Part shown: positions 1,297 through 60,559 of the stretch, piece after piece
How the letters are laid out: every line of letters begins with the position of its first letter
How positions within the stretch are numbered: the first letter of the stretch is position 1
Origin: an uncultured Chloroflexia bacterium
Lineage (GTDB): Bacteria; Chloroflexota; Limnocylindria; Limnocylindrales; CSP1-4
NCBI GenBank assembly: GCA_963709605.1
Contig: CAVPWX010000015.1
Location: 72,684-136,683, forward strand
Direction: 5' to 3'
DNA length: 64,000 bases
Notes under the pieces: generated by a model
Told to the model about the DNA's origin: nothing
Seen by the model: only the letters and a program-made list of their open reading frames with translations
Database searches by the model: none
Position numbers and translations under genes: made by a program

Positions 1297-1347
1297 GGGC
1301 ACATCCGCCTTGCTCGGCGCCGGGTCCACCACGTGATTCCCCGCGAT

Positions 1348-1527
1348 ACCACATCGGGCAGGTCGGGCCGTTTGTCACTCGCCAACCCCGCTCACATCGG
1401 TCAGCGTCCCCTCAGCGGGAGGCTCTGACACGCGGCCCATGCCCAGGCCGCCGGGACCGCGCCGAGCCACCGGCGAGACCGAGCAGCGGAGACGCGTCCC
1501 GAGGCAAGCCTGAGTCGGGAGGGATCG
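1348..1527 (+). repeat. Copy 1 of a ~180-nt paralogous leader element (copy 2 is at 8993..9169); ends at the start codon of the downstream gene
   Basis: Manual alignment with 8993..9169. The first 60 nt are about 88% identical (ACCACATCGGGYAGGTCGGGCCGTTTGYCACTCGCCAA...CACATCGGYCAGCGT) and the whole element is about 70% identical. Weaker similarity extends about 40 nt further upstream. No credible ORF is present. Confidence 0.55.
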
Positions 1528-2937
1528 ATGCGAGCCACGTCCTCTGGCCGGCGCCGATTGGGCGTCGGTCTGTCCCTTTCCCTGGCGGTCGCCCTCCTGA
1601 TGACGGTTGTCGCGCCTGTCGGTGCCGCCACGGTGGGCGCCTCCTGGCAGGCGAAGGTCGGCAGCACCGGGGCGAATGGAACGGCGACGATCCAGGCGTA
1701 CACGACGGGGTCGGGGTCGCTCGCCCTCAAGCTCGCCAAGCTGAAGGCAGCCACCTACTTGCCCGTCACGCTCTCGAAGGGGACGTGCGCGTCCGTCGGG
1801 TCGCGGCTCATCACGTTCCCGGCGATCAGGACGACGAGCTCCGGCGCTGCTGTCCGGACGTCGAGCCTCACGGTCGCCCAGGTGACGAAGCTCAAGGCCG
1901 CGACGACGGGCACCGGGAAGATCGCCATCCGGGTCGGCAGCAGCACGACCGGCGGCACGAAGTGCGGCGTCTTCACGGTCCTCTATGCGCCGATCGGCAT
2001 CGTGATTCCGGCGGGATGGCCGGACGTGGCCGCGTTCCAGACCGCCCTCAAGACCGCCCCGTATGGCGCCCGGATCCTGGTCAGCCGGGACTCCGCCACG
2101 GAGAAGGCGGCTGTCGAGGCGTTGATCCGACAGGGCATCAAGGTCCTGATCCTCACGCCACAGGGCAGCGCGGCGGCCGCGGCGGCCGCCGATGAAGCCA
2201 GGTCCGCCGGCGTCAAGGTCATTGCCAATGACCGCCTGATCCTCGACACCGTTGCGGTCGACTACTACGTGACCTTCGACTGCCTGGCGGTGGGCGCGGC
2301 CCAGGCCCAGTACCTGATCGACCGAGCCGGCGGGACGAAGGGCAACAATCTGTACCTGTACGCCGGCAATGCCGCCGACAACAACTCCTTCGTGTTCCTC
2401 GAGGGTGCCTGGGAGAAGCTCCAGCCGAAGATCTCCGACGGCACGTTCGTGATCCGGAACTCGAGCGTGGCCGTTGGTTTCCAGGGCAGCCCCACCCTGA
2501 CCCATGACCAGCTGGCCCAGGTCATCGCCCAGGTCACGACGAACTGGGACTTCAACACCGCCCGGACCCTCGCCGCGGGCAACCTGGCGGCCCTGCCCGC
2601 GGCCGCCAAGGGCACGGCCTTCGTCCTGGCCCCCAACGACACCACCGCCCGCGCGATCGGGGAAGCCTTCGCGGCCGACAAGGACGTGACGAAGGCCTGG
2701 CTGACCGGCCAGGACGCGGAGAAGGCGTCCGTCCAGGCCATCATCAACGGGACGCAGGGGATGACCGTCTTCAAGGATCCCCGTGCGCGGGTGAAAGATG
2801 CCCTCGCCACCGCGGCGACCTTCCTGCGGGGCGGCACGCCGGTCGCGACCACCACTGTCAACAACGGCGTGATCGACGTCCCGAGCAAGCTCCTGCCGAG
2901 CGTCACGGTCACCAGGACAACGTCCAGGCGGCCCTGA
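1528..2937 (+). CDS. Secreted ChvE/xylose-type sugar-binding protein (periplasmic binding protein family) with an extra ~140-aa N-terminal domain; apparent C-terminal frameshift
   Basis: GGGAGGG RBS and a signal peptide (RRRLGVGLSLSLAVALLMTVVAPVGA). The C-terminal 320 aa resemble multiple-sugar-binding proteins (DYYVTFD, LTGQDAEKASVQAIINGTQGMTVFKD). After ...SVTVT the family-typical tail QDNVQAALIDTGYYKASDF... continues in another frame to a stop at 2994-2996. This implies a 1-nt loss near 2911-2913. Confidence 0.8.
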   Translation: MRATSSGRRRLGVGLSLSLAVALLMTVVAPVGAATVGASWQAKVGSTGANGTATIQAYTTGSGSLALKLAKLKAATYLPVTLSKGTCASVGSRLITFPAIRTTSSGAAVRTSSLTVAQVTKLKAATTGTGKIAIRVGSSTTGGTKCGVFTVLYAPIGIVIPAGWPDVAAFQTALKTAPYGARILVSRDSATEKAAVEALIRQGIKVLILTPQGSAAAAAAADEARSAGVKVIANDRLILDTVAVDYYVTFDCLAVGAAQAQYLIDRAGGTKGNNLYLYAGNAADNNSFVFLEGAWEKLQPKISDGTFVIRNSSVAVGFQGSPTLTHDQLAQVIAQVTTNWDFNTARTLAAGNLAALPAAAKGTAFVLAPNDTTARAIGEAFAADKDVTKAWLTGQDAEKASVQAIINGTQGMTVFKDPRARVKDALATAATFLRGGTPVATTTVNNGVIDVPSKLLPSVTVTRTTSRRP

Positions 2938-3020
2938 TCGACACGGGCTACTACAAGGCCAGCGACTTCACCGGCTCCTGGCCGGGCAAGCCGTAGTCCG
3001 ATCCGCGGCCTGGCGTGCGC

Positions 3021-3125
3021 GGATAGCCGACCCGCCACATGCAGCCTGGAGGGCCGGGACGGCTCTGCGTAACAGCACCGTGCTCAGGAGCCCGAGCCAA
3101 ACCGGTCCAGTTATCGTGTCGTCAC
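3021..3125 (-). repeat. Degenerate copy A of the tRNA-Gly 3'-half plus 68-nt arm repeat
   Basis: Aligns with 6150..6245 and 8820..8916 (gacccgcCacatgcagcCtggaGggccgggacggct.tgcgtaacagca.cgtgctcagg.gcccgagc...cagttatcgtgtcgt). The acceptor-side end is eroded. Confidence 0.7.
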
Positions 3126-3255
3126 CATTGGCGCCACGGCCAGCCAACCGCCGCGCCATGCGGTGTCGGCTCAAGCTCGAACCCGTGGAAGCAGTTCGCA
3201 CTGATCCTGGCGACGCGCGCCTCCGTGAGCATCCGCTCGAAGGGACACTCCCGGA

Positions 3256-4263
3256 TCAGGCGTCGGCCAGCGCTGCCCTGAGCGCCGGGATGACGGTGGA
3301 CCCGTATGCTTCCAGCTGCGCCTCCTCGTCCCCGCTCATCAGGTAGAGGTTGAACTGGTCGACGCCGACCCTGCTGAGCTCCCTGAGCCGTCGCACGTGT
3401 TCCTCGGGCGGGCCGACGATGGCGAAGCGATCCACGACGTCGTCGCTCACGGACGCAGCACTCGACGAGCCGAACTCGCCGTGGCGGCGTTCGTCGTTGC
3501 CCTCGCGACCTCGGATGTAGCCGGTCAACAATTCGGGCAGTTGATCGGCTGGATACCTGTTCACGAGGTCGACGACGTGACCGCTGACGAGGCCCGGGAA
3601 CCAGCGCACATGCTCACGGCACTCCTCGATGCGGCCCACGTGCGCTGGGGCCGCGGCCTGGACCTTGATCGATGAAGGATCCCGGTCGGCTGTTTCGGCC
3701 GCATCTCGCATGAGGCCGACCATCCAGCGGATCAGATCCGGATCCGCCAGCTGGAGGATCAGGCCGTCGGCGATGCGGCCGGCCATGGCGAGCGCCATCG
3801 GACCGTACCCGGCGATCCATGTGGGCAGCTGCCAACCCTTCGCCCAGGGGAGGCTCAGGTCAGCGCCCTCGTACTCGGTCGATCGGCCCTCGACGAGGTC
3901 GCGGATGACCGTGGCCGCATGCTCCAGCATCTTCATCGTGGTGGGAGGCTTGCCGAGCGAGCGGACCGAGGCGTCGCCGCGGCCGATGCCGAGGTCCATA
4001 CGGCCACCCGAGATCTCTTCGAGCGTCGCGAGAGCGCTCGCCGTCACGCTCGGGTCTCGCGTGGCCGGGTTCGTCACGCAGGTGCCGAGGCGCATGTGCG
4101 TGGTGTTGATGGCCATCAGCGTGAGAAGCGGGTAGACCTCCCTGAACGGCAGGTGATTGTCGAAGAGCCAGCCGTAGCTGAACCCGGCGGCCTCCGCCTG
4201 CCTCGTGAGCGCGACGAACCGTTCGGTGTCGTGGTCAGGCTTGAGCGTGAATCCGAAGTCCAT
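3256..4263 (-). CDS. LLM-class (luciferase-like) F420/flavin-dependent oxidoreductase
   Basis: 335-aa ORF. It reads MDFGFTLKPDHD...GFSYGWLFDNH...LGTCVTNPATRDP...GGRMDLGIGRGD, typical of methylene-H4MPT-reductase-like LLM proteins. Confidence 0.85.
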   Translation of the reverse strand: MDFGFTLKPDHDTERFVALTRQAEAAGFSYGWLFDNHLPFREVYPLLTLMAINTTHMRLGTCVTNPATRDPSVTASALATLEEISGGRMDLGIGRGDASVRSLGKPPTTMKMLEHAATVIRDLVEGRSTEYEGADLSLPWAKGWQLPTWIAGYGPMALAMAGRIADGLILQLADPDLIRWMVGLMRDAAETADRDPSSIKVQAAAPAHVGRIEECREHVRWFPGLVSGHVVDLVNRYPADQLPELLTGYIRGREGNDERRHGEFGSSSAASVSDDVVDRFAIVGPPEEHVRRLRELSRVGVDQFNLYLMSGDEEAQLEAYGSTVIPALRAALADA

Positions 4264-4427
4264 GGCTCGCAGCCTACACCGCGGCCTGCGCTCGACCAGA
4301 CGCCATGCTGTCCGCCCGCATCAGTCGTCCGCCGAGACCCTGGAGGCTGCATGTCGTGCTGGGCCAGCCCCCGGCCCTCCCCCAGGTGCCGGTCACGCCG
4401 GACTCTTCTGAGGCTGAGTGTCGCGCG

Positions 4428-5936
4428 TCAGAAGGTGACCGACACCTCCTCCGAGCACGCGCCCCCATCCGTCTCGCAGATTCGGTAGACGTAGGTCCCG
4501 CCGCCCACCCGGCCGATGCGGTCTGTGTAGGACCCATCATTGTCGGTGGTCGTGACGACGACGCCGTCCCGGTACACAGCCACCTGGCTCCCGTCGGCGC
4601 CACTCCAGGCGAGGTCGACGTACCACACCTTTCGCACCACGTACGGATTCGCCGCGAGGGTGATGCCCCCGGGGGGCGGCTCCACCCCGCCACCACCGCT
4701 GGCCGCGAAGGCGTCGACGAGGCCGTACCCGTACTGCGGGTCGCGTCCGGATGTCCCGAGATCGACGGCCGTCGCCGCCAGCTGCTCACGGAGCTCGTTT
4801 GCGACCCCGTACGCCCCGTCGTCATCGCTGAGCACGCCCGCGGCGAGCACGAGGGCGGCAGCGCCGGCGACGTGCGGCGCCGACATCGAGGTTCCCGACC
4901 CGAACTTGTAGTGGCAGTCGAGATCCCCGTCGCCGTCGCCGTCCTCGCACACCGGCTGCGGATCCAGGTAGCTGGCGCTCATGTCGCTCGGCCAGGTGGA
5001 GAAGACGCTGACGCCGGGCGCGCTGAGCTCCACCGCGGCGCCCGTGGAGGACCAGCACGGCCGCACGTTCGCGCTGTCGATGGCGGCGACGGCAATGACG
5101 CTGGCGAAGAGCGCAGGGTAGGCGACGTTGCTTCCCTTGCCGGCGCAGTTGCCGCTGTTACCGGCGGCGGCGACGAGCAGGATGCCGGCTTCGTACGCCC
5201 GTTGCATCGCCTCCTCCGCGATGCTCGAGTAGTCGCCGCGCCCGATGCTCATGTTGACGACGACGGCGGTCGGGTTCCCGTTGTTCCAGATGTCGTCGAT
5301 CGCCGCGATGTGGCGGCTCCAGGCGCCTACGCCGTCCGCATCGAGCGTCTTGTAGGCGATCACGGTCGCTTCCGGCGCAACGCCAACCACTCCGGTTTCC
5401 TCGCCGTGCAGCGCGGCTGCCACGGTCCCGGCGACGTGCGTCCCATGCCCGTAGTCATCGTCGGCGTTCTGCGTTTCCGTCACGTAGTTCCAGCCATGCT
5501 CGCAGTTCACCGCGAGCTCGAGGTGGTCGCAGTCGATGCCGCTATCGATCACCGCCACGCGCACCCCGGCTCCCAGGTTGCCGGTGGCATGGACCTCGTC
5601 GGCCCGCACGTGCGCGATGCCCCAGTCGTGAGTCGGCCGGTACTCCAGGGCATAGAGGAGGGAGTCGGGCTCGACGACCGCGACGCGCGGGTTGCGCGAG
5701 ATGCCCGCGAGCGCAGCCTCCGGCACGGTCGCGGCGACGGCGGGGACGATCCCGAACGAGCGGGTGACGTCGGCGCCCAGACCCCTCAGACCGGCAACGT
5801 CGGCTGCTGTCGGAGGAGCTGTGAACCGGATCAGAACCGGAACCCGCTCCATCGATGCACCCAGCACGGGTGCAGGCATGAGCGTCGTGATGAGCATCGC
5901 CGTGGCGACGACTGCCAGACACCGACGACCAGACAT
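4428..5936 (-). CDS. Secreted S8 (subtilisin-family) serine peptidase with a C-terminal beta-sandwich domain
   Basis: Catalytic triad contexts VAVIDSGID, HGTHVAGT and GTSMSAPHVAG. The start is chosen at MSGRRCLAVVATAML (signal peptide), which has a GGAGG RBS upstream. The longer track ORF reaching 6248 runs through repeat copy B. Confidence 0.88.
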   Translation of the reverse strand: MSGRRCLAVVATAMLITTLMPAPVLGASMERVPVLIRFTAPPTAADVAGLRGLGADVTRSFGIVPAVAATVPEAALAGISRNPRVAVVEPDSLLYALEYRPTHDWGIAHVRADEVHATGNLGAGVRVAVIDSGIDCDHLELAVNCEHGWNYVTETQNADDDYGHGTHVAGTVAAALHGEETGVVGVAPEATVIAYKTLDADGVGAWSRHIAAIDDIWNNGNPTAVVVNMSIGRGDYSSIAEEAMQRAYEAGILLVAAAGNSGNCAGKGSNVAYPALFASVIAVAAIDSANVRPCWSSTGAAVELSAPGVSVFSTWPSDMSASYLDPQPVCEDGDGDGDLDCHYKFGSGTSMSAPHVAGAAALVLAAGVLSDDDGAYGVANELREQLAATAVDLGTSGRDPQYGYGLVDAFAASGGGGVEPPPGGITLAANPYVVRKVWYVDLAWSGADGSQVAVYRDGVVVTTTDNDGSYTDRIGRVGGGTYVYRICETDGGACSEEVSVTF

Positions 5937-6131
5937 GGCTCCCCTCCATCCTATGGCGTCACCGCCGGTCACCGTCATAGGGGGCCGCTGGCGCGAGACG
6001 TCCGCCTCATCTGCGCGTTGCACGCAGTCAGCCCTTAAATCGACGGCGAGGCGGGAGGCGGCGTCAAGTGCCAGACAGCCTGATCTGAACCGCGACACAG
6101 CCTGCGTGTCGCCAGGGAGATCAAAGGGGGT

Positions 6132-6245
6132 TGGAGCGGGAGACGGGGATCGAACCCGCGACATGCAGCTTGGAAGGCCGGGACGGCTATGCGTAACAGC
6201 ATCGTGCTCAGGGGCCCGAGCGGAAGTGTCAGTTATCGTGTCGTG
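6132..6245 (-). repeat. Copy B of the tRNA-Gly 3'-half plus 68-nt arm repeat
   Basis: Bases 6132-6178 are identical (47/47) to the 3' part of the tRNA-Gly gene at 11207-11253, covering the CCA end, T arm and anticodon loop. The next 68 nt are shared only with copies A and C. Confidence 0.85.
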
Positions 6246-6569
6246 CAAAGGGGAGTTTGAGCGCTCTTAGCATTAGGTCAAGATGAGGTAGGTTGCAGTG
6301 GAAGGGGACAGAAGCATGAAGGTCAGCGTGTTCGACTGGATGGGCTGAACGACTGCACCTAGGCTGGACAATGGGAGTAGGCGAGAAGCTCAGACACGAG
6401 GGCTTTGCAAGGCGGCAGGGACGGCGCAGAGCCCCTGGTGAGTTCCAGCGGCCGCGATGATATTAGAGACGAAGGCCTCTAGACGAGGACCGGAAATACG
6501 TCCACGACGGGATCGACCACCCTTGGCGGTCGATGCAACAGTTGGCGATCGGGCGAGCCTCTCTCTGGT

Positions 6570-7116
6570 ATGACGGGTTTAAAGACGGCCACGATGTCGA
6601 TGACCGCGGCGCTGCGGCAGGCAGTCGCGGGGGACGAGGCCGCGTTCGCCCGGATCGTGGCGACCTACCACGCGGACATGATCCGAGTCGCCTACGGCAT
6701 CTGCGGCGAGCCGGACCTGGCCCTCGACGCGGTGCAGGCGGCCTGGCTGATCGCCTGGCGGAAGCTGCGAACGGTCGGGAACCCGAGCGCTCCGGTCGTG
6801 GCTCGTGGCGGTGGCCGCGAACGAGGCTCGCCACGACGGTCCGACGCGGCGCATCGGGGCTCGGGTGGTCGAGATCGAGCTCGATGATGCCGGACAGCGG
6901 CGCGCCGGACCCTGCCGATGACGATCGGGCGGGTGGACCTGGTGAACGCCCTGCGCCACCTCAAGGCCGGACGAGCGCTCGCTCATCGCGCTGCGCTACG
7001 GGGCCGAGCTGCGACTCGAACGAGATCGGGCCGCTGCTGGGCATCTCGGCCTCGGGCGTGCGCGCACGACTGCTCGGCTCATGGGCCGCCTGCGAAAGGA
7101 GCTCGACGATGGCTGA
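6570..7116 (+). pseudogene. ECF (sigma-70 family) sigma factor, disrupted by several frameshifts
   Basis: Region 2 is intact (EAAFARIVATYHADMIRVAYGICGEPDLALDAVQAAWLIAWRKLRTV). The remaining pieces lie in different frames: LRSWLVAVAANEARH..., VDLVNALRHLK..., ...SLIALRYGAEL, SNEIGPLLGISASGVRARL and MGRLRKELDDG*. Confidence 0.7.
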
Positions 7117-8584
7117 GCTCGACGTCTTCGAGGATCGCTTCACGGCGGCCTATCGCCGGTACCTCGACGAGGTCGCCGACGGAGGTGGAGCCGCGAGGTC
7201 GCGCGGATCGTCACCGCCGCGCACCCGGCCGGCCACGGGCGGGCGTCTGGCCCGGCGCTCAGGCCGGCACCCGCGTTCGCCTGGCTGGTGCTGCTTGCCC
7301 TGCTGCTGGCCGCCTGGGCGCGGCCGCCTTCTTCGTTGGCTCGCAACGGTTGCAGAGGCTCCCGGCTGTGATACCGCCCGTCAGCAGACTGCACCACGCG
7401 GCACGCACACCACGTGAGCGAAGGCCGTACGTCGCGCGAGCGCAACGGGAACACACTGCGCGATCAGGATGGACGGCACTCGAATGCTGGGGCAGCAACT
7501 GGTACGGCGAGGCGACGGGCCAAAGGCGATGGCACTACATCGCGTGAGCGCAAGCGCGAGGGGCACACTGCGCGATCGCACAACGGGACGCTGGCTGCTG
7601 GGGCTGGAACCGTATGGCAGGCGACTCCGCCAGCGGCACCTACCTCGGTGAGCGCGGGCTGGCATCACACGTGCGCGATCAGGACGGACGGCGCCTCGAG
7701 GCGAGGAGAAACGGCGACGAGACGACGCGCGTCCGGGACATACGTGCGTTGGTGCGGGGTTTGGCATACCTGCGCATCCGCGACCGACGGGGCGCTGTCC
7801 TGCTGGGGGCTTGAGATGGCCAGGTTGAACACGCCGGCCGGCACCTACGTTTTCGTGGACGCCTTCAGCCAATGCGCGATTGGACTGACGGGACGCTTGC
7901 CTGCTGGCGTCGGCATCGACGAGCCGACGCCACCTCCCGGCACCTATGTCGCCGTGAACGGAGAGTGGAGCAGACGCTGCGCGCTCGGCACCGACGGGAC
8001 GCTGACCTGTTGGGGCCCCGAGGCATCGCCTCCGCCCGCCGGCACATTCACCGCCTGACCGGCGACTTGCCAGATTGGGAGGCCTGCGCGATCCGGACCG
8101 ACGGGAAGCTCACGTGCTGGGGCGTCGACTGGATCGCGAAGACCGATCCCGGTGGCTGGATAGGGCCCCCTTCGCACTTGATGCCGACATGCGCAGCATC
8201 GTCCCCGCTTCCGAGGTCCCGGGGATCGTCGCGGTACGTCGAGTTCGGGTCGGTCGGGTCGGGCTGCAGCGTCATCATGCCGGCGACGACCTTCTCGGTC
8301 AGAGCCATCCACTTCGCAGCGAACCTTGAGCGCGAGGTGCGGGCGGGCGAAACCGTGACGTCACGCTGTCGGTGGAGATGGCGACTTGCTCGTAAGAGCC
8401 GGCGTCCCGGACGTTCGACGTGCAAGGCGACTGCGTAGGCGGACTCCTGTACTGGGCCTACGCTGCCCCGCCCTGGAGTGAGCTGTCCGCCTTCCCGATC
8501 TCCTGGACGACCGGCCACTACCGCCTGGACCTCTCCGCGGGCGGGAAGGTGCTCGCACAGGGCGAGTTCGACGTCGGGCCCTAG
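7109..8584 (+). pseudogene. Degraded anti-sigma-like / RCC1-like repeat protein gene(s)
   Basis: The start MAELDVFEDRFTAAYRRYLDEV overlaps the sigma factor stop. A TM-like segment (AFAWLVLLALLLAAW) follows in another frame. At least 5 copies of the motif GTY..V....HTCAIRTDG.L.CWG are scattered over all three + frames. The terminal fragment ...ISWTTGHYRLDLSAGGKVLAQGEFDVGP* ends at 8584. Confidence 0.55.
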
Positions 8585-8801
8585 CGGGGGGCCGGCCCCG
8601 GCTCGGCACCGGCCGGCCCGCTCTCCTTGCGGGATGAGAGGCGCACCGGACGTCCGATGGTCGATTGTCCTCAGGAAGTGAACCGTGGCGGCTCCGAAGG
8701 TCGCCGTTGAGCGTTGCAGCACGCGATTCGGCGACATCGACCGGTCGCCGAGAGGGCCGGTCCGCGCAGGCTGCGTGTCGCCCCGAGCACGAACAGGGGA
8801 A

Positions 8802-8916
8802 TGGAGCGGGAGACGGGGATCGAACCCGCGAAATGCAGCTTGGAAGGCCGGGACGGCCATGCGTAACAGCACCGTGATCAGGGGCCCGAGCGAAGGTGTC
8901 CAGTTATCGTGTCGTG
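8802..8916 (-). repeat. Copy C of the tRNA-Gly 3'-half plus 68-nt arm repeat
   Basis: About 94% identical to copy B over 115 nt, with one mismatch to the tRNA core. The sequence just below it (cccgagcacgaac) also resembles the sequence just below the real tRNA. Confidence 0.85.
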
Positions 8917-8992
8917 ACGACCGACGGCAAGCCCCCGCGGGGCTGGCTGCCAACCTCGCTCGACGCCTTGTCCATCAGGTGGTTGCCTGCGC

Positions 8993-9169
8993 ACCACATC
9001 GGGTAGGTCGGGCCGTTTGCCACTCGCCAAGCCGGCCCACATCGGCCAGCGTTTCCTCTGCGAGAGGCGATGAAACGCGGTTCAACCCCTGGCCGCGTGA
9101 CCGTGTCGAGCCACTGGCGAAGCCGACCCGCCGATCGCGCCCCGAGGCGAACGCACGAACCGGAGACAG
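8993..9169 (+). repeat. Copy 2 of the ~180-nt paralogous leader element (copy 1 is at 1348..1527); ends at the start codon of the downstream gene
   Basis: See copy 1. Two small hairpins are kept in both copies through C-to-U changes that give G-U pairs: GCGGCC/GGCCGC versus GCGGTT/GGCCGC, and CGCCG/CGGCG versus TGTCG/TGGCG. Confidence 0.55.
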
Positions 9170-10151
9170 ATGAGAGCAGTCGTTTGCACGGACTACGGAC
9201 CGCCGGATGTCCTTCGAGTCAGGGACGTGCCGAAGCCCGTTCCGAAGGACGACGAGGTCCTTGTCCGAATCCGCGCCACGACCGTCAGCGCGGCCGATTG
9301 CGAGCTGCGGCGGTTCGACTTCGCTCCCTGGATCTGGGTGCCCATGCGGCTTGCGTTCGGCATCTTCAGACCGCGACGACGTGTGCTCGGACAGGAGCTC
9401 GCCGGTGACGTCGAGTCGGTGGGCAAGAAGGTCAGGTCGCTCAGGAAGGGCGACCGGGTCTTCGCGGCGACGGGCATCCCCCTGGGAGCCTACGCGGAGT
9501 ACATCTGCCTGCGCGAGAACCCCCCGACCGGGGTGATCGCGACGATGCCGGCGAACCTCGACTACGCGGAGGCTGCGGCCGTTCCCTACGGAGGAGGCGA
9601 GGCCCTGTTGTATCCTGCGGAAGGCGGGCGTCCGGAGCGGACAGAGGGTCCTGGTCAACGGCGCGGGAGGGAGCTTCGGCACGTTCGCGGTCCAGCTCGC
9701 CAAGGTCCTCGGGGCGCACGTGACCGCGGTGGACAGCGCGCCGAAGCTGGAGATGCTGCGCACGATCGGCGCGGATCGCGTCATCGACTACGCCCAGGAG
9801 GACTTCACCGACAGCCCCGAGACCTACGACGTCATCTTCGACGTGGTCCGCGGCACACCGTCCGCTCGCATGGTTGGGTCGCTGACCGAGAACGGATGGC
9901 TGCTCATGGCCAATCCGGGCTTCCTGCAGATCGTTCGCGCCAGGTGGGCGGCGAGGGGAAGCAGGAAGCGGGTGTCGTTCACGGCATCGACCTTGACGGG
10001 CGAGGACCTTGCCTACCTGCGCGGCCTGGTCGAAGCGGGGCGACTGCGCCCGGTCGTCGACCGGCGCTTCCAGCTCGAGCAGATGGTCGAGGCTCACAGG
10101 TACGCCGAGGCCGGCCAGAAGCTGGGGAACGTCGTTGTCGTCGTCGCCTAG
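9170..10151 (+). pseudogene. Zinc-type alcohol dehydrogenase / NADPH:quinone oxidoreductase (MDR family) with one apparent frameshift
   Basis: The N-terminus reads MRAVVCTDYGPPDVLRVRDVPKPVPKDDEVLVRIRATTVS... and stays in frame up to ...AVPYGGGEAL. The Rossmann part ILRKAGVRSGQRVLVNGAGGSFGTFAVQLAKVLGAHVTAVD...GNVVVVVA* continues in another frame. The shift lies near 9607-9612. Confidence 0.75.
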
Positions 10152-10211
10152 TTGCGGCCACTGAAGCCGGTACACGTTGGGCCGAGCGGGCTCGAACAGA
10201 GAGGGAACACC

Positions 10212-11178
10212 ATGAAGGCCGTCATCCAGACCGGCTACGGCTCGGCGGACGTGCTCCAGCTCAAGGAGATCAACAAGCCCGTTGCCGCCGATGACGAGGT
10301 GCTGGTGCGCGTCCAAGCGGCATCGCTTGCCGCCGGTGACTACTTCGGCATGAGGGGCGTGCCCTTTCCCATCCGGATGTACGTCGGGTTCCCGAGGCCG
10401 AAGAAGGACTACGTCGTGGGGGTCGATCTGGCGGGGCGCGTCGAGGCGGTCGGCAAGAACGTGACGCGCTTCAAGCCGGGCGATGAGGTGTTCGGCGGGT
10501 GCAGCCGCGCATGCGCCGAATACACGTGCGCCAAAGAGGACCAGCTCGTTCCCAAGCCGAACAACCTGACGTTCGAGCAGGCCGCGGCCGTGCCCACGTC
10601 GGCCGTGGCCGCTCTGCAGACGCTTCGCGATCACGGCAAGGTGCAGCCCGGGCAGAAGGTCCTGATCAACGGCGCGTCGGGGGGCGTGGGAACCTTCGCC
10701 GTGCAGATCGCCAAGGCCCTCGGGGCGGAAGTGACCGGCGTGTGCAGCACGGCGAACGTGGACATGGTCGGATCGATCGGAGCGGACCATGTCATCGACT
10801 ACACCAAGGAGGACTTCACCCAGGGCGAGCCGCGCTACGACCTGATCCTCGACAACGTTGCGAGTCACTCGTTCGCGGACTACAGGCGCGTGCTCGAGCC
10901 CGGGGGGACGCTCATGCCCAACAGCGGGCATGCCGGCATGGGCTACGTCATCAAGGCGTTCCTGCTGCCGCTGTTCGTGCGCCAGGTGGAGCGCCCGTTC
11001 GTCGCGAGGCCGAACCAGGACGACCTGATCACCCTGAAGGGCCTGGTCGAGGCCGGGCGGGTCACGCCTGTCATCGACCGAGACGTATCCGCTGAGAGAG
11101 ACCGCTGAGGCCTTTCGGTATCTGGACCAGGGTCACGCTCACGGCAAGGTCATCATCGTCGTGGCGAACGGTGAGTGA
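10212..11178 (+). pseudogene. Second MDR-family NADPH:quinone oxidoreductase; apparent 1-nt insertion near the 3' end
   Basis: Reads MKAVIQTGYGSADVLQLKEINKPV...INGASGGVGTFAVQIAKALGAEVTGV. After ...VTPVIDR the conserved tail TYPLRETAEAFRYLDQGHAHGKVIIVV continues in the +1 frame to a stop at 11176-11178. The extra base is at about 11082. Confidence 0.75.
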
Positions 11179-11206: not shown

Positions 11207-11282
11207 TGGAGCGGGAGACGGGGATCGAACCCGCGACATGCAGCTTGGAAGGCTGCCGCTCTGCCAGCTGAGCTACTCCCGC
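11207..11282 (-). tRNA. tRNA-Gly (anticodon UCC), CCA encoded
   Basis: The reverse complement is GCGGGAGTAGCTCAGCTGGCAGAGCGGCAGCCTTCCAAGCTGCATGTCGCGGGTTCGATCCCCGTCTCCCGCTCCA. It has a 7-bp acceptor stem GCGGGAG/CTCCCGC, an anticodon stem GCAGC/GCTGC with loop CTTCCAA, and a T loop TTCGATC. Confidence 0.93.
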
Positions 11283-44638: not shown

Positions 44639-46420
44639 ATGTCACACCGCCTCCTGGGGGGCGTCGCCGCGCTGGCGATCGCCCTGGGGGCTCTCGCGTA
44701 CCCCAGCGCGGAGCCCGTCCGGGCGGCATCGGCCGACTGCACGGGATGGACCAGCTCCCTCGTGCCGCCGACGTCGATCCGGGTCTACCAAACAGCGACG
44801 AAGCGCACCGTGACGGTGCCCTTCCGAACATACGTCGAGAAGGTCGTGGCCGCCGAGTGGGGCCGGTCCGCGCCCCCTGCTGCCCTGCGGATCGGCGCCA
44901 TTGCCGTGAAGCAGTACGCCTGGTACTTCACGATGTTCTGGCGCGGTGGCCGTGACGCGGCCGGGCGCTGCTACGACGTGTCCGACAGCACGCGCGACCA
45001 GCTCTACGATCCCGGCCGCCGGCCCAGCGCGGCCCAGCTCGCCGCCGTCGCCGCGACCTGGAACGTGAGCCTGCGCAAGGGCGACCGGTTCTTCATGACC
45101 GGCTATCGGCCGGGGACGGGATCCTGCACCGCCCACATCGACGGCTGGCGGCTCTACCAGCGCGACGCGGTGGACTGCGTCCGTGCGTGGGGCGACACGG
45201 CCGAGACGCTCGCCCGGCGCTTCTTCAGCTACGTGTCGTGGACGGTCCCGGGGGCCGGCGACTACACCGGCGACGGGCGGGGTGACCTCGCCGCGCTCAC
45301 CGTGGATCCCGTCACCGGGGAGACCACGGCCCAGGTGTACACGTCGGACCTCGAGTACAAGGCGGCGGCCCGGACGAGCGCCCGGGCCGGGATCACCCTC
45401 GACGCGACCCCGTCGGACGAGCTCCTGGGACGGGCGAGCGGCGACGTCGACGGCGACGGTCGGGCCGACCTCGTGCAGCTCGTCCGGACAGCGGACGGCA
45501 TCGCCCTGGAGGTCATGCGCGGCGGTCCCGCCGGGCTTGCGCCGGCCACGACGTGGTGGCGCCAGGCGATCCCCCCGGCCGATCCCGCCGTCCCGGCCGA
45601 TCCCGCCGTCCCGGCCGATCCCGCCGTCCCGGCCGATCCCGCGGATCCAGCGGCCCCTGCGGCCCCGGTCGACGAACCATACCGGCTCGTGGTGGCCGAC
45701 TTCGACGCCGACGGGCGCGCTGACGCCGGCATCGTGCGAACCCTTCCCGACGCGCTCCCGACCACGCCGGCGACGCCGGCCGACCCACCCGTCCCGGAGG
45801 TGCCGGCCGCGGCCCTCGACGTGGCAACCTCGACCGGCACGGCCTTCGCCCGGGCCGAGCGAACATGGGAAGGCGCGGCCGACCTCGCGAGCTCGACCGT
45901 GCTGGCCGGCGACCTGACCGGCGACGGGCGCGGCGACCTCGTGGTCCTCTCCCCGCTCGAGGCGGGCGGCACCGCCATCGGGGTGGCGGCCTCGTCGACA
46001 CGGGACGAGCTCGACACGCTCGCCCGCTGGGCGACCGAGCCCCTGGCGCTCGACTCGATCCGGGCCATCGTCGGGGACGCGACGCGCGACGGCCGCGACG
46101 ACGTGGTCGTCGTGCGGCGGTCCGGCGCGGACGGTATCCGCCTCGTGGTCTACCGGTCGTCGAGCACGGGACAGAGCTTCACGCGCCTCCACTTCGGCGA
46201 TCCGCCGGCGATCTCGTTCGCCGGCAGCCGCTTCAGCACGGCCGACCTGACCGGCGACGGACGCGCCGATCTCGTCGCCCTGGTGGACCGCGGGAAGGAC
46301 GCCTCCGGCGTGCCGCTCGGCAGCGACGCCTGGACCTTCCTGTCGGACGGGACCTCCTACGCGCCCCGCCAGTGGTTCACCAGCCCGACGCTGGCATGGG
46401 AGACGACCTTCCCGTACTGA
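44639..46420 (+). CDS. Secreted SpoIID/LytB-like domain protein fused to FG-GAP/VCBS-like repeats
   Basis: Signal peptide. The N-terminal domain resembles SpoIID (YVEKVVAAEW...AIAVKQYAWYF). Repeated GD.TGDGRGDL / DFDADGRAD / DLTGDGRADL motifs follow. An internal 18-nt repeat gives PADPAVPADPAVPADPAV (45575-45640). Confidence 0.7.
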   Translation: MSHRLLGGVAALAIALGALAYPSAEPVRAASADCTGWTSSLVPPTSIRVYQTATKRTVTVPFRTYVEKVVAAEWGRSAPPAALRIGAIAVKQYAWYFTMFWRGGRDAAGRCYDVSDSTRDQLYDPGRRPSAAQLAAVAATWNVSLRKGDRFFMTGYRPGTGSCTAHIDGWRLYQRDAVDCVRAWGDTAETLARRFFSYVSWTVPGAGDYTGDGRGDLAALTVDPVTGETTAQVYTSDLEYKAAARTSARAGITLDATPSDELLGRASGDVDGDGRADLVQLVRTADGIALEVMRGGPAGLAPATTWWRQAIPPADPAVPADPAVPADPAVPADPADPAAPAAPVDEPYRLVVADFDADGRADAGIVRTLPDALPTTPATPADPPVPEVPAAALDVATSTGTAFARAERTWEGAADLASSTVLAGDLTGDGRGDLVVLSPLEAGGTAIGVAASSTRDELDTLARWATEPLALDSIRAIVGDATRDGRDDVVVVRRSGADGIRLVVYRSSSTGQSFTRLHFGDPPAISFAGSRFSTADLTGDGRADLVALVDRGKDASGVPLGSDAWTFLSDGTSYAPRQWFTSPTLAWETTFPY

Positions 46421-59603: not shown

Positions 59604-59741
59604 TCACGCGCGTCCGGCGTCGCGCAGCTCCCGCAGCCCTCACGCGCGTCCGGCGTCGCGCAGCTCCCGGCCCTCACGCGCGTCCGGCGTCGCGCAGCTC
59701 CCGGCCCTCACGCGCGTCCGGCGTCGCGCAGCTCCCGCAGC
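59604..59741 (-). repeat. 34-36-nt tandem repeat x4 that reiterates the 3' end (last ~8 codons plus stop) of the gene at 59708..60559
   Basis: Units start at 59604, 59640, 59674 and 59708. Each unit reads TCACGCGCGTCCGGCGTCGCGCAGCTCCCG(GCCC/CAGCCC). The rightmost unit is the real gene end, ...ELRDAGRA*. Confidence 0.9.
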
Positions 59742-60559
59742 AGGTCCGCGTAGCCCCGGTGCCGAGCCCGGAGGGCCCCGAGATCGTCGAGCGGCGCCCA
59801 GGCCGGCGCCCGCGGCCGGACGATCGGGTCGAAGATCACCACGGTCGACGCGATCCCGGCGGCTTGGGGTCGTGCCCCGTCCCACCATCGGGCGAACGCT
59901 TCCGGCGCGTCCGGTCCCAGGGCCCGGATGGTAGCTCCTCGAAGCCGGAGGACGTGGAGGCAATCGGCCGTCCATGCGATCGTCAGGACGTGCGTCACCG
60001 AGCGGAAGCCGCCCCGCGCTCCGTGGCGCTCGGCGAGCGTGGCCGCGAGGTACCGGCGCTTGACGTTCCAGGCGCCGGCCAACTCGCCGACGTTGACGAT
60101 CGCGGTCTTCACCTCGTGGTGGAGGAGGTCGGGCCCCGTCGGGTCGACCACCGTCACGTCGGCGCGTCCGGCGAACTGGAAGTGCTGGAAGGGCTCGTCG
60201 GCGGCGACGTGGCGGCCCTGGGCCGCGTAGCGGGCGGCGAGCATCTCGACGATGGCCGCGTGCACGGGGTCCTCGACGCGACCCGGGCGCGCGCGGCTTC
60301 GCGGGTCGTCGAGCGACGCCTCGAAGCGGAGGCCGAGGGCGACCCCCAGGCGAGCGTACGTCTCCAGCGTCGCCGGCTCGCCGCGCTCGACGAGGTAGAC
60401 GAGCGTCCTGGAGACGCCCGCCTCACGGGCCAGGTGCTCGGTCGTCCATCGACGGCGCAGGCGCGCGTCACGGACCTGCGCGCCGATCGAGGCCGCGATC
60501 GCGGACAGCCGGGCGAGCGCAGCTGGAGGGGCCGGAGCGACCCGCGGAAAGCGTGCCAT
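59708..60559 (-). CDS. XRE-family HTH protein fused to a possible PD-(D/E)xK nuclease-like domain
   Basis: HTH: LRRRWTTEHLAREAGVSRTLVYLVERGEPATLETYARLGVALG. The C-terminal 200 aa contain GRADVTVVDPTGPDLLHHEVKT (a D...E.K spacing). The nuclease assignment rests on this motif only. Confidence 0.7.
   Translation of the reverse strand: MARFPRVAPAPPAALARLSAIAASIGAQVRDARLRRRWTTEHLAREAGVSRTLVYLVERGEPATLETYARLGVALGLRFEASLDDPRSRARPGRVEDPVHAAIVEMLAARYAAQGRHVAADEPFQHFQFAGRADVTVVDPTGPDLLHHEVKTAIVNVGELAGAWNVKRRYLAATLAERHGARGGFRSVTHVLTIAWTADCLHVLRLRGATIRALGPDAPEAFARWWDGARPQAAGIASTVVIFDPIVRPRAPAWAPLDDLGALRARHRGYADLLRELRDAGRA

Follow-up and report, generated by a model that had tools for sequence, protein, structure and literature searches.

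Why should two unrelated genes be preceded by the same sequence of some 200 nucleotides (nt)? The question is raised by a 64,000-nt stretch of DNA from an uncultured Chloroflexia bacterium (contig CAVPWX010000015.1, positions 72,684 to 136,683), referred to below as the window, in which a sequence-only reading had pointed to two similar blocks, one upstream of a gene for a sugar-binding protein and one upstream of the first of two MDR-family oxidoreductase genes. The repeat is a promoter joined to a riboswitch of an already catalogued type, and is a real regulatory RNA; it is very probable that each copy consists of a promoter and then a riboswitch leader of the variant cyclic diguanylate (c-di-GMP)-II class, c-di-GMP-II-GAG/GCG. 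The RNA class itself is in Rfam (RF03169 and RF03170, clan CL00127) and the window copies are further examples of it. What is new here is the rejection of two hairpins proposed for the repeat, the positional evidence for a promoter and transcription start, the finding that the repeat stops 20 nt short of the ATG, and the linkage of one copy to its gene and grafting of the other.

Extent of the repeat

Pairwise alignment and a repeat-family scan of the window resolved two homologous blocks on the same strand, at about 1308-1507 (copy A) and about 8953-9149 (copy B). Alignment and Pfam together bore out the earlier observation that each of the two copies stands 5′ of an unrelated gene. The copies had been placed at 1348-1527 and 8993-9169, with identities of 88% over the first 60 nt and 70% overall; over these intervals we measured 90% and 77%, and the homology, which is real, begins some 40 nt further 5′, at about 1308 and 8953. 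The alignment had also been taken to continue up to the ATG. This did not hold, as the final 20 nt are 48% identical, which is the level of the flanking controls (51% and 55%). Broken down by segment, the two copies are 81% identical in the promoter part (1308-1411 against 8953-9056) and 72% in the aptamer segment, falling to the background of 48% beyond 1507. Module A (1308-1507, + strand) thus comprises a promoter block and a riboswitch leader, and is homologous to module B (8953-9149, + strand), in which the same two parts have been joined to the MDR gene's own ribosome-binding region. Neither terminal inverted repeats nor target duplications could be seen at the two copies.

Each copy was said to contain a direct repeat of CACATCGG with a spacing of 45 nt. 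It does occur twice per copy, at 1350 and 1393 and at 8995 and 9038, with a start-to-start distance of 43 nt. It is conserved in none of the 128 relatives described below (0/128), being private to the two window copies, and was for that reason given no weight as a feature of the family. Three explanations of the repeat had been left side by side, a structured leader, a shared promoter or operator block and a duplicated module. Each is partly right, the first for the 3′ two-thirds, the second for the 5′ third and the third for the whole unit.

Identification and structure of the aptamers

A riboswitch aptamer makes up the 3′ two-thirds of each copy. The sequence-only reading could fit the element to no riboswitch consensus it knew; an Rfam scan places both copies above the gathering score. 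Copy A (1409-1493, + strand) matches c-di-GMP-II-GAG (RF03169) with 54.3 bits against a gathering score of 40. Copy B (9054-9137, + strand) is of variant c-di-GMP-II type, and its best clan member is c-di-GMP-II-GCG (RF03170) rather than RF03169, with 50.9 bits against 47.9, a narrow margin of 3 bits. Matches of both copies to the canonical model, RF01786, were dropped as lower-scoring clan overlaps, the variant models scoring better. Our own covariance model (R1), built from an alignment of 128 relatives (A3), gave 73.9 bits (E = 3.9e-19) for copy A and 71.7 bits (E = 1.7e-18) for copy B. No further credible R1 match was found in the 64-kb window, the next best scoring 16 bits (E = 0.023).

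In aptamer A, helix P1 (1415-1419 with 1483-1487) has two of its five pairs broken; P2 (1421-1423 with 1466-1468) and P3 (1430-1438 with 1453-1462, A1456 being bulged) are intact. The pseudoknot strands, CGCC in the P3 loop (1449-1452) and GGCG in the 3′ junction (1472-1475), are complementary, and the pocket dinucleotide is G1477 A1478. In aptamer B, P1 (9060-9064 with 9127-9131) contains one A.C mismatch, the loop strand of the pseudoknot is one base short, and the pocket dinucleotide is A9121 G9122; AG is found in only 2 of 130 family members.

Variant c-di-GMP-II families with changed pocket bases were reportedly defined by Weinberg et al. in PNAS in 2017. Copy A matches RF03169 end to end, with the same P1-P2-P3 layout and position in the 5′ untranslated region (UTR), the conserved strands GAGGC, GAGCCA and UGGCGAGACCGA, and GA before CCGA. 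It differs in the two non-pairs of P1. We file copy A as a member of RF03169. Copy B shares with RF03170 the fold and the 5′ GAGGCGAUGA. The consensus of the 3′ junction is GAGACCG in the GAG class and GAGCCCG in the GCG class, and copy B, with GAAGCCG, matches neither; the GC that stands before CCGA in the GCG consensus (GGCGAGCCCGA) was sought in copy B and not found there. Because its junction reads GGCGAAGCCGA, with the rare AG, copy B is filed under the variant clan and not strictly as GCG, having passed the score of RF03170 and lacking the characteristic GC.

Canonical c-di-GMP-II riboswitches (RF01786; for example at locus L102) have the same architecture, belong to the same clan and carry the same conserved GAGGC...UGA, GAGCCA and CCGA. 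They too precede heterogeneous genes, many of them for surface or secreted proteins, as for a second-messenger switch. In contrast, the canonical junction GUGCAACCG is replaced in the variants by GGCGAGACCG or GGCGAGCCCG, so that the pseudoknot pairs are exchanged, and the canonical AA before CCG is GA in copy A and AG in copy B. Two canonical-type loci, L102 and L019, of which only L102 was confirmed as RF01786, have a terminator overlapping ACCGAC and would therefore be ON switches, whereas the window copies are without a terminator. Literature text searches found no ligand report for variant c-di-GMP-II riboswitches, and to our knowledge no ligand has been identified for the RF03169 and RF03170 classes.

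The family in relatives and its fold

Genome contigs were scanned with the core pattern GAGGCNNTGA-N25-50-GAGCCANNGGCGANNCCGA. The scan gave at least 130 matches, the two of the window included, at no fewer than 113 loci, nearly all of them in metagenome-assembled genomes of uncultured Chloroflexota (Limnocylindria and ‘Chloroflexia’ soil bins). Among the matches listed, relatives often have several copies per 8 kb, and the 128 relatives of A3 were drawn from the same matches. The family statistics below come from loci found by this strict pattern, in which invariant columns are fixed and divergent members are under-sampled. R1 returned 160 hits in the first 100 loci. The search for further copies that had been proposed as a check turned up hundreds in relatives, on the same strand as the gene, with a start codon typically 20-40 nt further 3′. 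Some of the R1 hits form arrays of aptamer-led short genes: L083 has nine within 8 kb, all on one strand, L071 has six and L088 four; L022 is likewise an array locus.

The Rfam-type fold was counted as a P1 of five base pairs (bp) plus two extension pairs, a P2 of 3 bp, a P3 of 6+3 bp with a bulged A, and the pseudoknot CGCC:GGCG. Across the 128 relatives 84% of cells pair, compared with 34-46% in slid controls. Changes on both sides of a pair (compensatory changes) were found in 14 of the 24 pairs, and none of 500 shuffles reached any of the five measures. These changes support P1 and P3. Pairs beyond the fifth of P1 are mostly unpaired, so P1 is only 5 bp. The columns of the pseudoknot are nearly invariant, leaving no room for covariation. 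In orthologues of gene A, the gene behind copy A, A-U and C-G replacements occur in P2, which is invariant otherwise, and one orthologue (L306) shows a G-C replacement in the pseudoknot (n = 8, not significant). The pocket dinucleotide varies across the family, with GA in 82 members, AC in 26, AA in 10, GC in 5 and AG in 2. Against the possibility, raised by the sequence-only reading, that the window holds the only two copies and that no covariation exists, there are the 160 R1 hits and the compensatory changes.

Promoter signals

The best-conserved part of the repeat, the 60 nt with 90% identity, sits upstream of the aptamer. Its position and the comparison with the family, rather than the strength of any consensus, suggest that this 5′ third is a promoter and not an RNA leader. 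In 75 of 126 relatives there is a NANNNT hexamer whose end falls 12-14 nt ahead of GAGGC; each of the other offsets accounts for about 2-3. A hexamer at a fixed offset is the signature of a −10 element and would put the start of transcription at the 5-bp P1 or slightly upstream of it. A start there is consistent with the shortness of P1, the pairs beyond its fifth being mostly unpaired. A T(T/C)G signal lies 17 nt upstream of the −10 hexamer, both in promoters with and in promoters without a conserved box that overlaps the −35 (forms as written: GGCCGTTYGNCNCTCGCCA, GGGGCCGTTCGCCTCTCGCCAGA and GGGGGCCGTTCGCCTCTCGCCAGA). The box stands at the same distance, embedding the −35 position, in 30 of 130 family members, both window copies among them.

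In copy A the box, GGCCGTTTGTCACTCGCCA (1366-1384, + strand), is an exact match to the pattern, and its last six bases, TCGCCA (1379-1384), fall at the expected −35. A weak −10-like hexamer, CAGCGT (1402-1407, + strand), assigned by position only, follows 17 nt after TCGCCA, and transcription of A would start at about 1413-1415. In copy B the box, GGCCGTTTGCCACTCGCCA (9011-9029, + strand), was recognised by the same pattern and contains TCGCCA at 9024-9029; positional comparison places the −10-like CAGCGT at 9047-9052.

An aptamer usually comes after the box, at a constant distance of 41-43 nt. The box is also found without an aptamer, in L012 (twice), L061 and L092, and before a decayed aptamer, in L063 and L022 (at L022:2086). 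The box is a promoter-level element in its own right. About three quarters of the aptamers are without a strict box, and other promoters are used there. Scanning contigs for the box pattern first gave mostly chance matches in unrelated high-GC phyla, only the Chloroflexota matches being informative.

The consensus box TCTCGCCAG is an exact 9-nt complement of the aptamer pseudoknot/pocket strand CTGGCGAGA. In the window the complementarity (1376-1384 against 1470-1478) covers only 6 nt, and it could be of consequence only for a transcribed box. A role of the box as an anti-aptamer was not adopted, given these 6 nt in the window copies and the position of the box upstream of the predicted start.

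Downstream genes and expression platform

The gene behind copy A (1528-2937, + strand) encodes a secreted protein of the periplasmic-binding-protein family (Pfam PF13407, Peripla_BP_4, E = 8.8e-34, residues 169-435) with about 150 extra amino acids (aa) at its N-terminus. Gene B (9170-10294, + strand) is the first of two tandem MDR-family oxidoreductase genes and has a Pfam ADH_N domain. Both window aptamers lie on the coding strand in the 5′ UTR position, with promoter signals just upstream. The ATG follows the CCGA that ends the aptamer core by 45 nt in copy A, where it differs from the usual 20-40 nt, and by 43 nt in copy B. In 92 of the 128 relatives the distance from the aptamer to the start of an open reading frame (ORF) that has a Shine-Dalgarno sequence is 20-40 nt.

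The downstream proteins are diverse, falling into 90 clusters among the 128. A signal-peptide-like N-terminus was found in 89 of them (~70%, by a crude test). The commonest Pfam assignments were methyltransferases (9), SRPBCC/polyketide-cyclase-like proteins (9) and SnoaL-like proteins (4), and single peptidases, serpins and repeat proteins also occur. We infer that so heterogeneous and largely exported a gene set fits the regulon of a second-messenger riboswitch rather than that of a metabolite riboswitch.

An intrinsic terminator was sought in both window leaders and none was found, which makes control of translation initiation likeliest. The expression platform of copy A (1494-1523, + strand), delimited by motif comparison and the minimum free energy (MFE) fold, holds GCGTCCCGA (1494-1502) and the Shine-Dalgarno sequence GGGAGGG (1517-1523). 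Some 30% of relatives have a GCGTCCC-like motif, to which its first part belongs, located 9-12 nt beyond P1 and immediately 5′ of the Shine-Dalgarno sequence; copy A reads GCGTCCC (1494-1500) and copy B GCGCCCC. The motif is kept in six of seven gene A orthologues even though the position of the Shine-Dalgarno sequence moves, the other (L301) reading GCGTTCC. Within copy A, CGGGAGGC in the 5′ strand of the aptamer (1416-1423) is complementary to GCGUCCCG (1494-1501) in seven of eight pairs, and UCCCGA (1497-1502) is complementary to UCGGGA (1515-1520) in the Shine-Dalgarno region, with which it forms a local hairpin in the MFE fold. A three-strand competition between the aptamer 5′ strand, the C-rich strand and the Shine-Dalgarno sequence is therefore plausible. 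In copy B the region before the ATG (9147-9169, + strand), with the Shine-Dalgarno sequence GGAG at 9162-9165, lies outside the repeat. It is 48% identical to copy A, is kept in aptamer-less orthologues and is the native 5′ region of the MDR gene.

The course of events that we propose begins with transcription starting a few bases before P1. The first ~80 nt of the mRNA would then fold into the P1-P2-P3 aptamer with its pseudoknot, which would bind a putative small signalling molecule. Binding would alter access to the ribosome-binding site 25-45 nt downstream, with control most likely exerted at translation initiation. The likeliest switching strand is the conserved C-rich GCGUCCC, whose pairing partner could be the aptamer 5′ strand, GGGAGGC, or else the Shine-Dalgarno region in copy A. 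Both genes would be part of a large regulon whose members mostly encode secreted proteins, in uncultured Chloroflexota of Limnocylindria type. Blocking the whole aptamer raised the predicted accessibility of the Shine-Dalgarno sequence (0.47 vs 0.39), in a comparison that is biased. Helix-length tests for the direction of the switch gave only weak and opposite trends; as neither direction is convincing in these models, we claim neither ON nor OFF.

Different histories of the two copies

All seven full-length orthologues of gene A (7/7; L300-L306, 68-81% identity) carry an aptamer at the same place, with scores of 44-68 bits. Shorter homologues without the N-terminal extension, starting at about residue 155, have no aptamer upstream. 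The comparison marks copy A as an old linkage that orthologues have kept. The extra N-terminal ~150 aa of the binding protein (window 1528-2000) travel with the riboswitch. The aptamers of L300-L306 lie some 30-120 nt before the gene and have GAAGC, GCAGC, TGAGC or AGCGC in place of GAGGC; they possibly represent a sub-lineage whose core is altered.

The picture for copy B is different. Among 80 loci with relatives of the MDR gene, an aptamer precedes the gene only in L238, where it is degraded (51 bits; P2 is disrupted). In the close orthologues L221, L235 and L232, GCGAACGCACGAACCGGAGACCC ahead of the ATG is all that is shared with the window, and an aptamer match is absent. Because only this native region is common to the orthologues, the module (8953 to about 9149) was placed before the gene's own ribosome-binding region. 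Copy B is, on this evidence, a module grafted onto the native ribosome-binding region of the oxidoreductase gene, with an aptamer that has drifted. Among the matches listed, the promoters of A and B are mutually closest, at 81-84% compared with at most 72% to any other locus. The aptamer core of A is 95% identical to typical members, and that of B is 77% identical to A and, among the matches listed, at most 86% to any other relative. That B has a distinct specificity is less likely than that it is a drifted or impaired copy.

Transcription

The window locus is well represented only in DNA metagenomes. Four sediment metatranscriptomes contained contigs over 1392-1519 at very high summed depth, with matches coming from many paralogous aptamers, and the body of gene A was thinly covered by contigs 90-95% alike. 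More than 100 paralogous aptamers map to the core, blurring any 5′ end. RNAs of the aptamer family are present in these sediment samples.

Alternative explanations

Several observations count against a promoter and a working riboswitch at these two loci. A simple sigma-70 consensus scan reports no promoter at either copy, both CAGCGT and TCGCCA being weak. The metatranscriptome matches are family-wide, and so do not speak for these two loci or their start, and some of the RNA contigs run on upstream of the aptamer, which may reflect DNA carry-over or read-through. Thermodynamic tests of how aptamer and Shine-Dalgarno sequence might affect each other gave no difference from shuffled aptamers, the P1 3′ strand paired with the tail to the same extent as with shuffled tails, and complementarity of the tail to the 5′ strand gave only a weak signal (4.39 vs 4.21 bp, p = 0.03). 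Either aptamer could also be impaired, A with three of five P1 pairs, and B with its P1 mismatch, shortened pseudoknot strand and rare pocket dinucleotide. These defects lead to a reading that has a real though minority chance of being correct, in which copy B, and perhaps A, is a decaying relic whose promoter still drives the gene and whose aptamer no longer binds or switches. The divergence of the B core from A and from all relatives would fit, as the core of A is typical and the B promoter still resembles that of A; so would the two P1 pairs missing from A, the degraded aptamer of L238, the only other MDR orthologue bearing the module, and the decayed aptamers behind intact boxes in L063 and L022. 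However, B still scores 71.7 bits with R1 and lies above the Rfam gathering score, several of its differences in P3 keep the pairing (A-U for an A.C, and G-U pairs), and the aptamer of A is retained in 7/7 orthologues.

The remaining alternatives would deny the RNA fold its part, or replace it. The two hairpins proposed from the window alone (1432-1451 and 1460-1475) use the P3 strands and both pseudoknot strands and are thus mutually exclusive with the aptamer fold, and they are pairable in 93.5% of cells across the 128 relatives, as a functional structure or a ligand-free alternative fold would be. The suggested covariation test did yield compensatory changes, in favour of the Rfam-type fold; the hairpins have one, and 367 of 500 shuffles do as well. 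Changes in their 5′ strands lose pairing rather than being compensated and the partner columns are nearly invariant, so that the pairability follows from G+C-rich conservation, and a role for these hairpins is improbable; at most they would be an alternative fold. Still less probable is a DNA-level element only, a promoter or operator for one transcription factor with an incidental RNA fold. It would account for the promoter box being the best-conserved part (90%) and for boxes without an aptamer (L012, L061 and L092), but it is contradicted for the 3′ part by compensatory base-pair changes, which DNA binding does not select, as well as by matches to curated RNA models and by the three quarters or so of aptamers that have no strict box. 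As for a plain dispersed or mobile repeat with no regulatory role, similar to a miniature inverted-repeat transposable element or a gene-cassette recombination site, the many copies per genome, the arrays of up to nine in 8 kb (L083), the position of copy B about 25 nt from a tRNA-Gly 3′-half repeat and the new placement of the module before the MDR gene could all be cited in its favour. Yet copies are typically on the same strand and 20-40 nt 5′ of a start codon, terminal inverted repeats and target duplications were not seen at the two copies, sequence conservation tracks the RNA fold and the gene A linkage is stable across species, leaving this explanation hardly any probability.

Implications

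With the 200-nt repeat annotated as a promoter and a riboswitch, two otherwise unconnected genes are put in one regulon. The graft onto the ribosome-binding site of the oxidoreductase gene is a small, clear example of how a regulon can gain members. For an orphan riboswitch class, the abundance in Chloroflexota of soil and sediment, the bias towards secreted proteins, the range of pocket dinucleotides and an aptamer-gene pair kept in seven orthologues could guide the choice of ligands and constructs.

A broader proposal, which we regard as speculative and rather doubtful, is that box and aptamer form a portable cassette that recruits unrelated genes by duplication or recombination. Such a cassette would have two inputs, a DNA-binding or sigma factor reading the box and a signal other than c-di-GMP read by the RNA, and the GA, AC, GC, AG and AA sub-variants would mark different ligand specificities within one genome. 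If this were true, the oxidoreductase pair would have been drawn into one signal-controlled regulon of Limnocylindria-type Chloroflexota.

Other features of the window

The minus strand carries a tRNA-Gly(TCC) gene at 11207-11282, the 3′ half of which recurs in three partial copies spaced 2.4-3.1 kb, at 3001-3106, 6125-6230 and 8795-8900, each followed by the same ~70-nt sequence that is not tRNA; these copies resemble att-site remnants left by small integrated elements. The repeat at 3001 begins about 60 nt beyond the end of gene A, and riboswitch copy B starts about 25 nt after that at 8795-8925.

The tandem MDR ORFs (9170-10294 and 10152-11108; together window 9170-11108) overlap by about 140 nt and have in common a 205-nt repeat with 76% identity (9638-9842 vs 10649-10853). 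The first is 374 aa long with only an ADH_N domain, whereas single-gene matches in relatives reach about 330 aa at most; a frameshift or a wrong ORF call may affect the 3′ part of this first ORF. Further repeats were seen elsewhere in the window, namely DGDG-type units at 45253-46281, five overlapping copies of a 45-nt stretch with an 18-nt period at 45556-45672, and four copies of a 34-36-nt repeat at 59604-59750.

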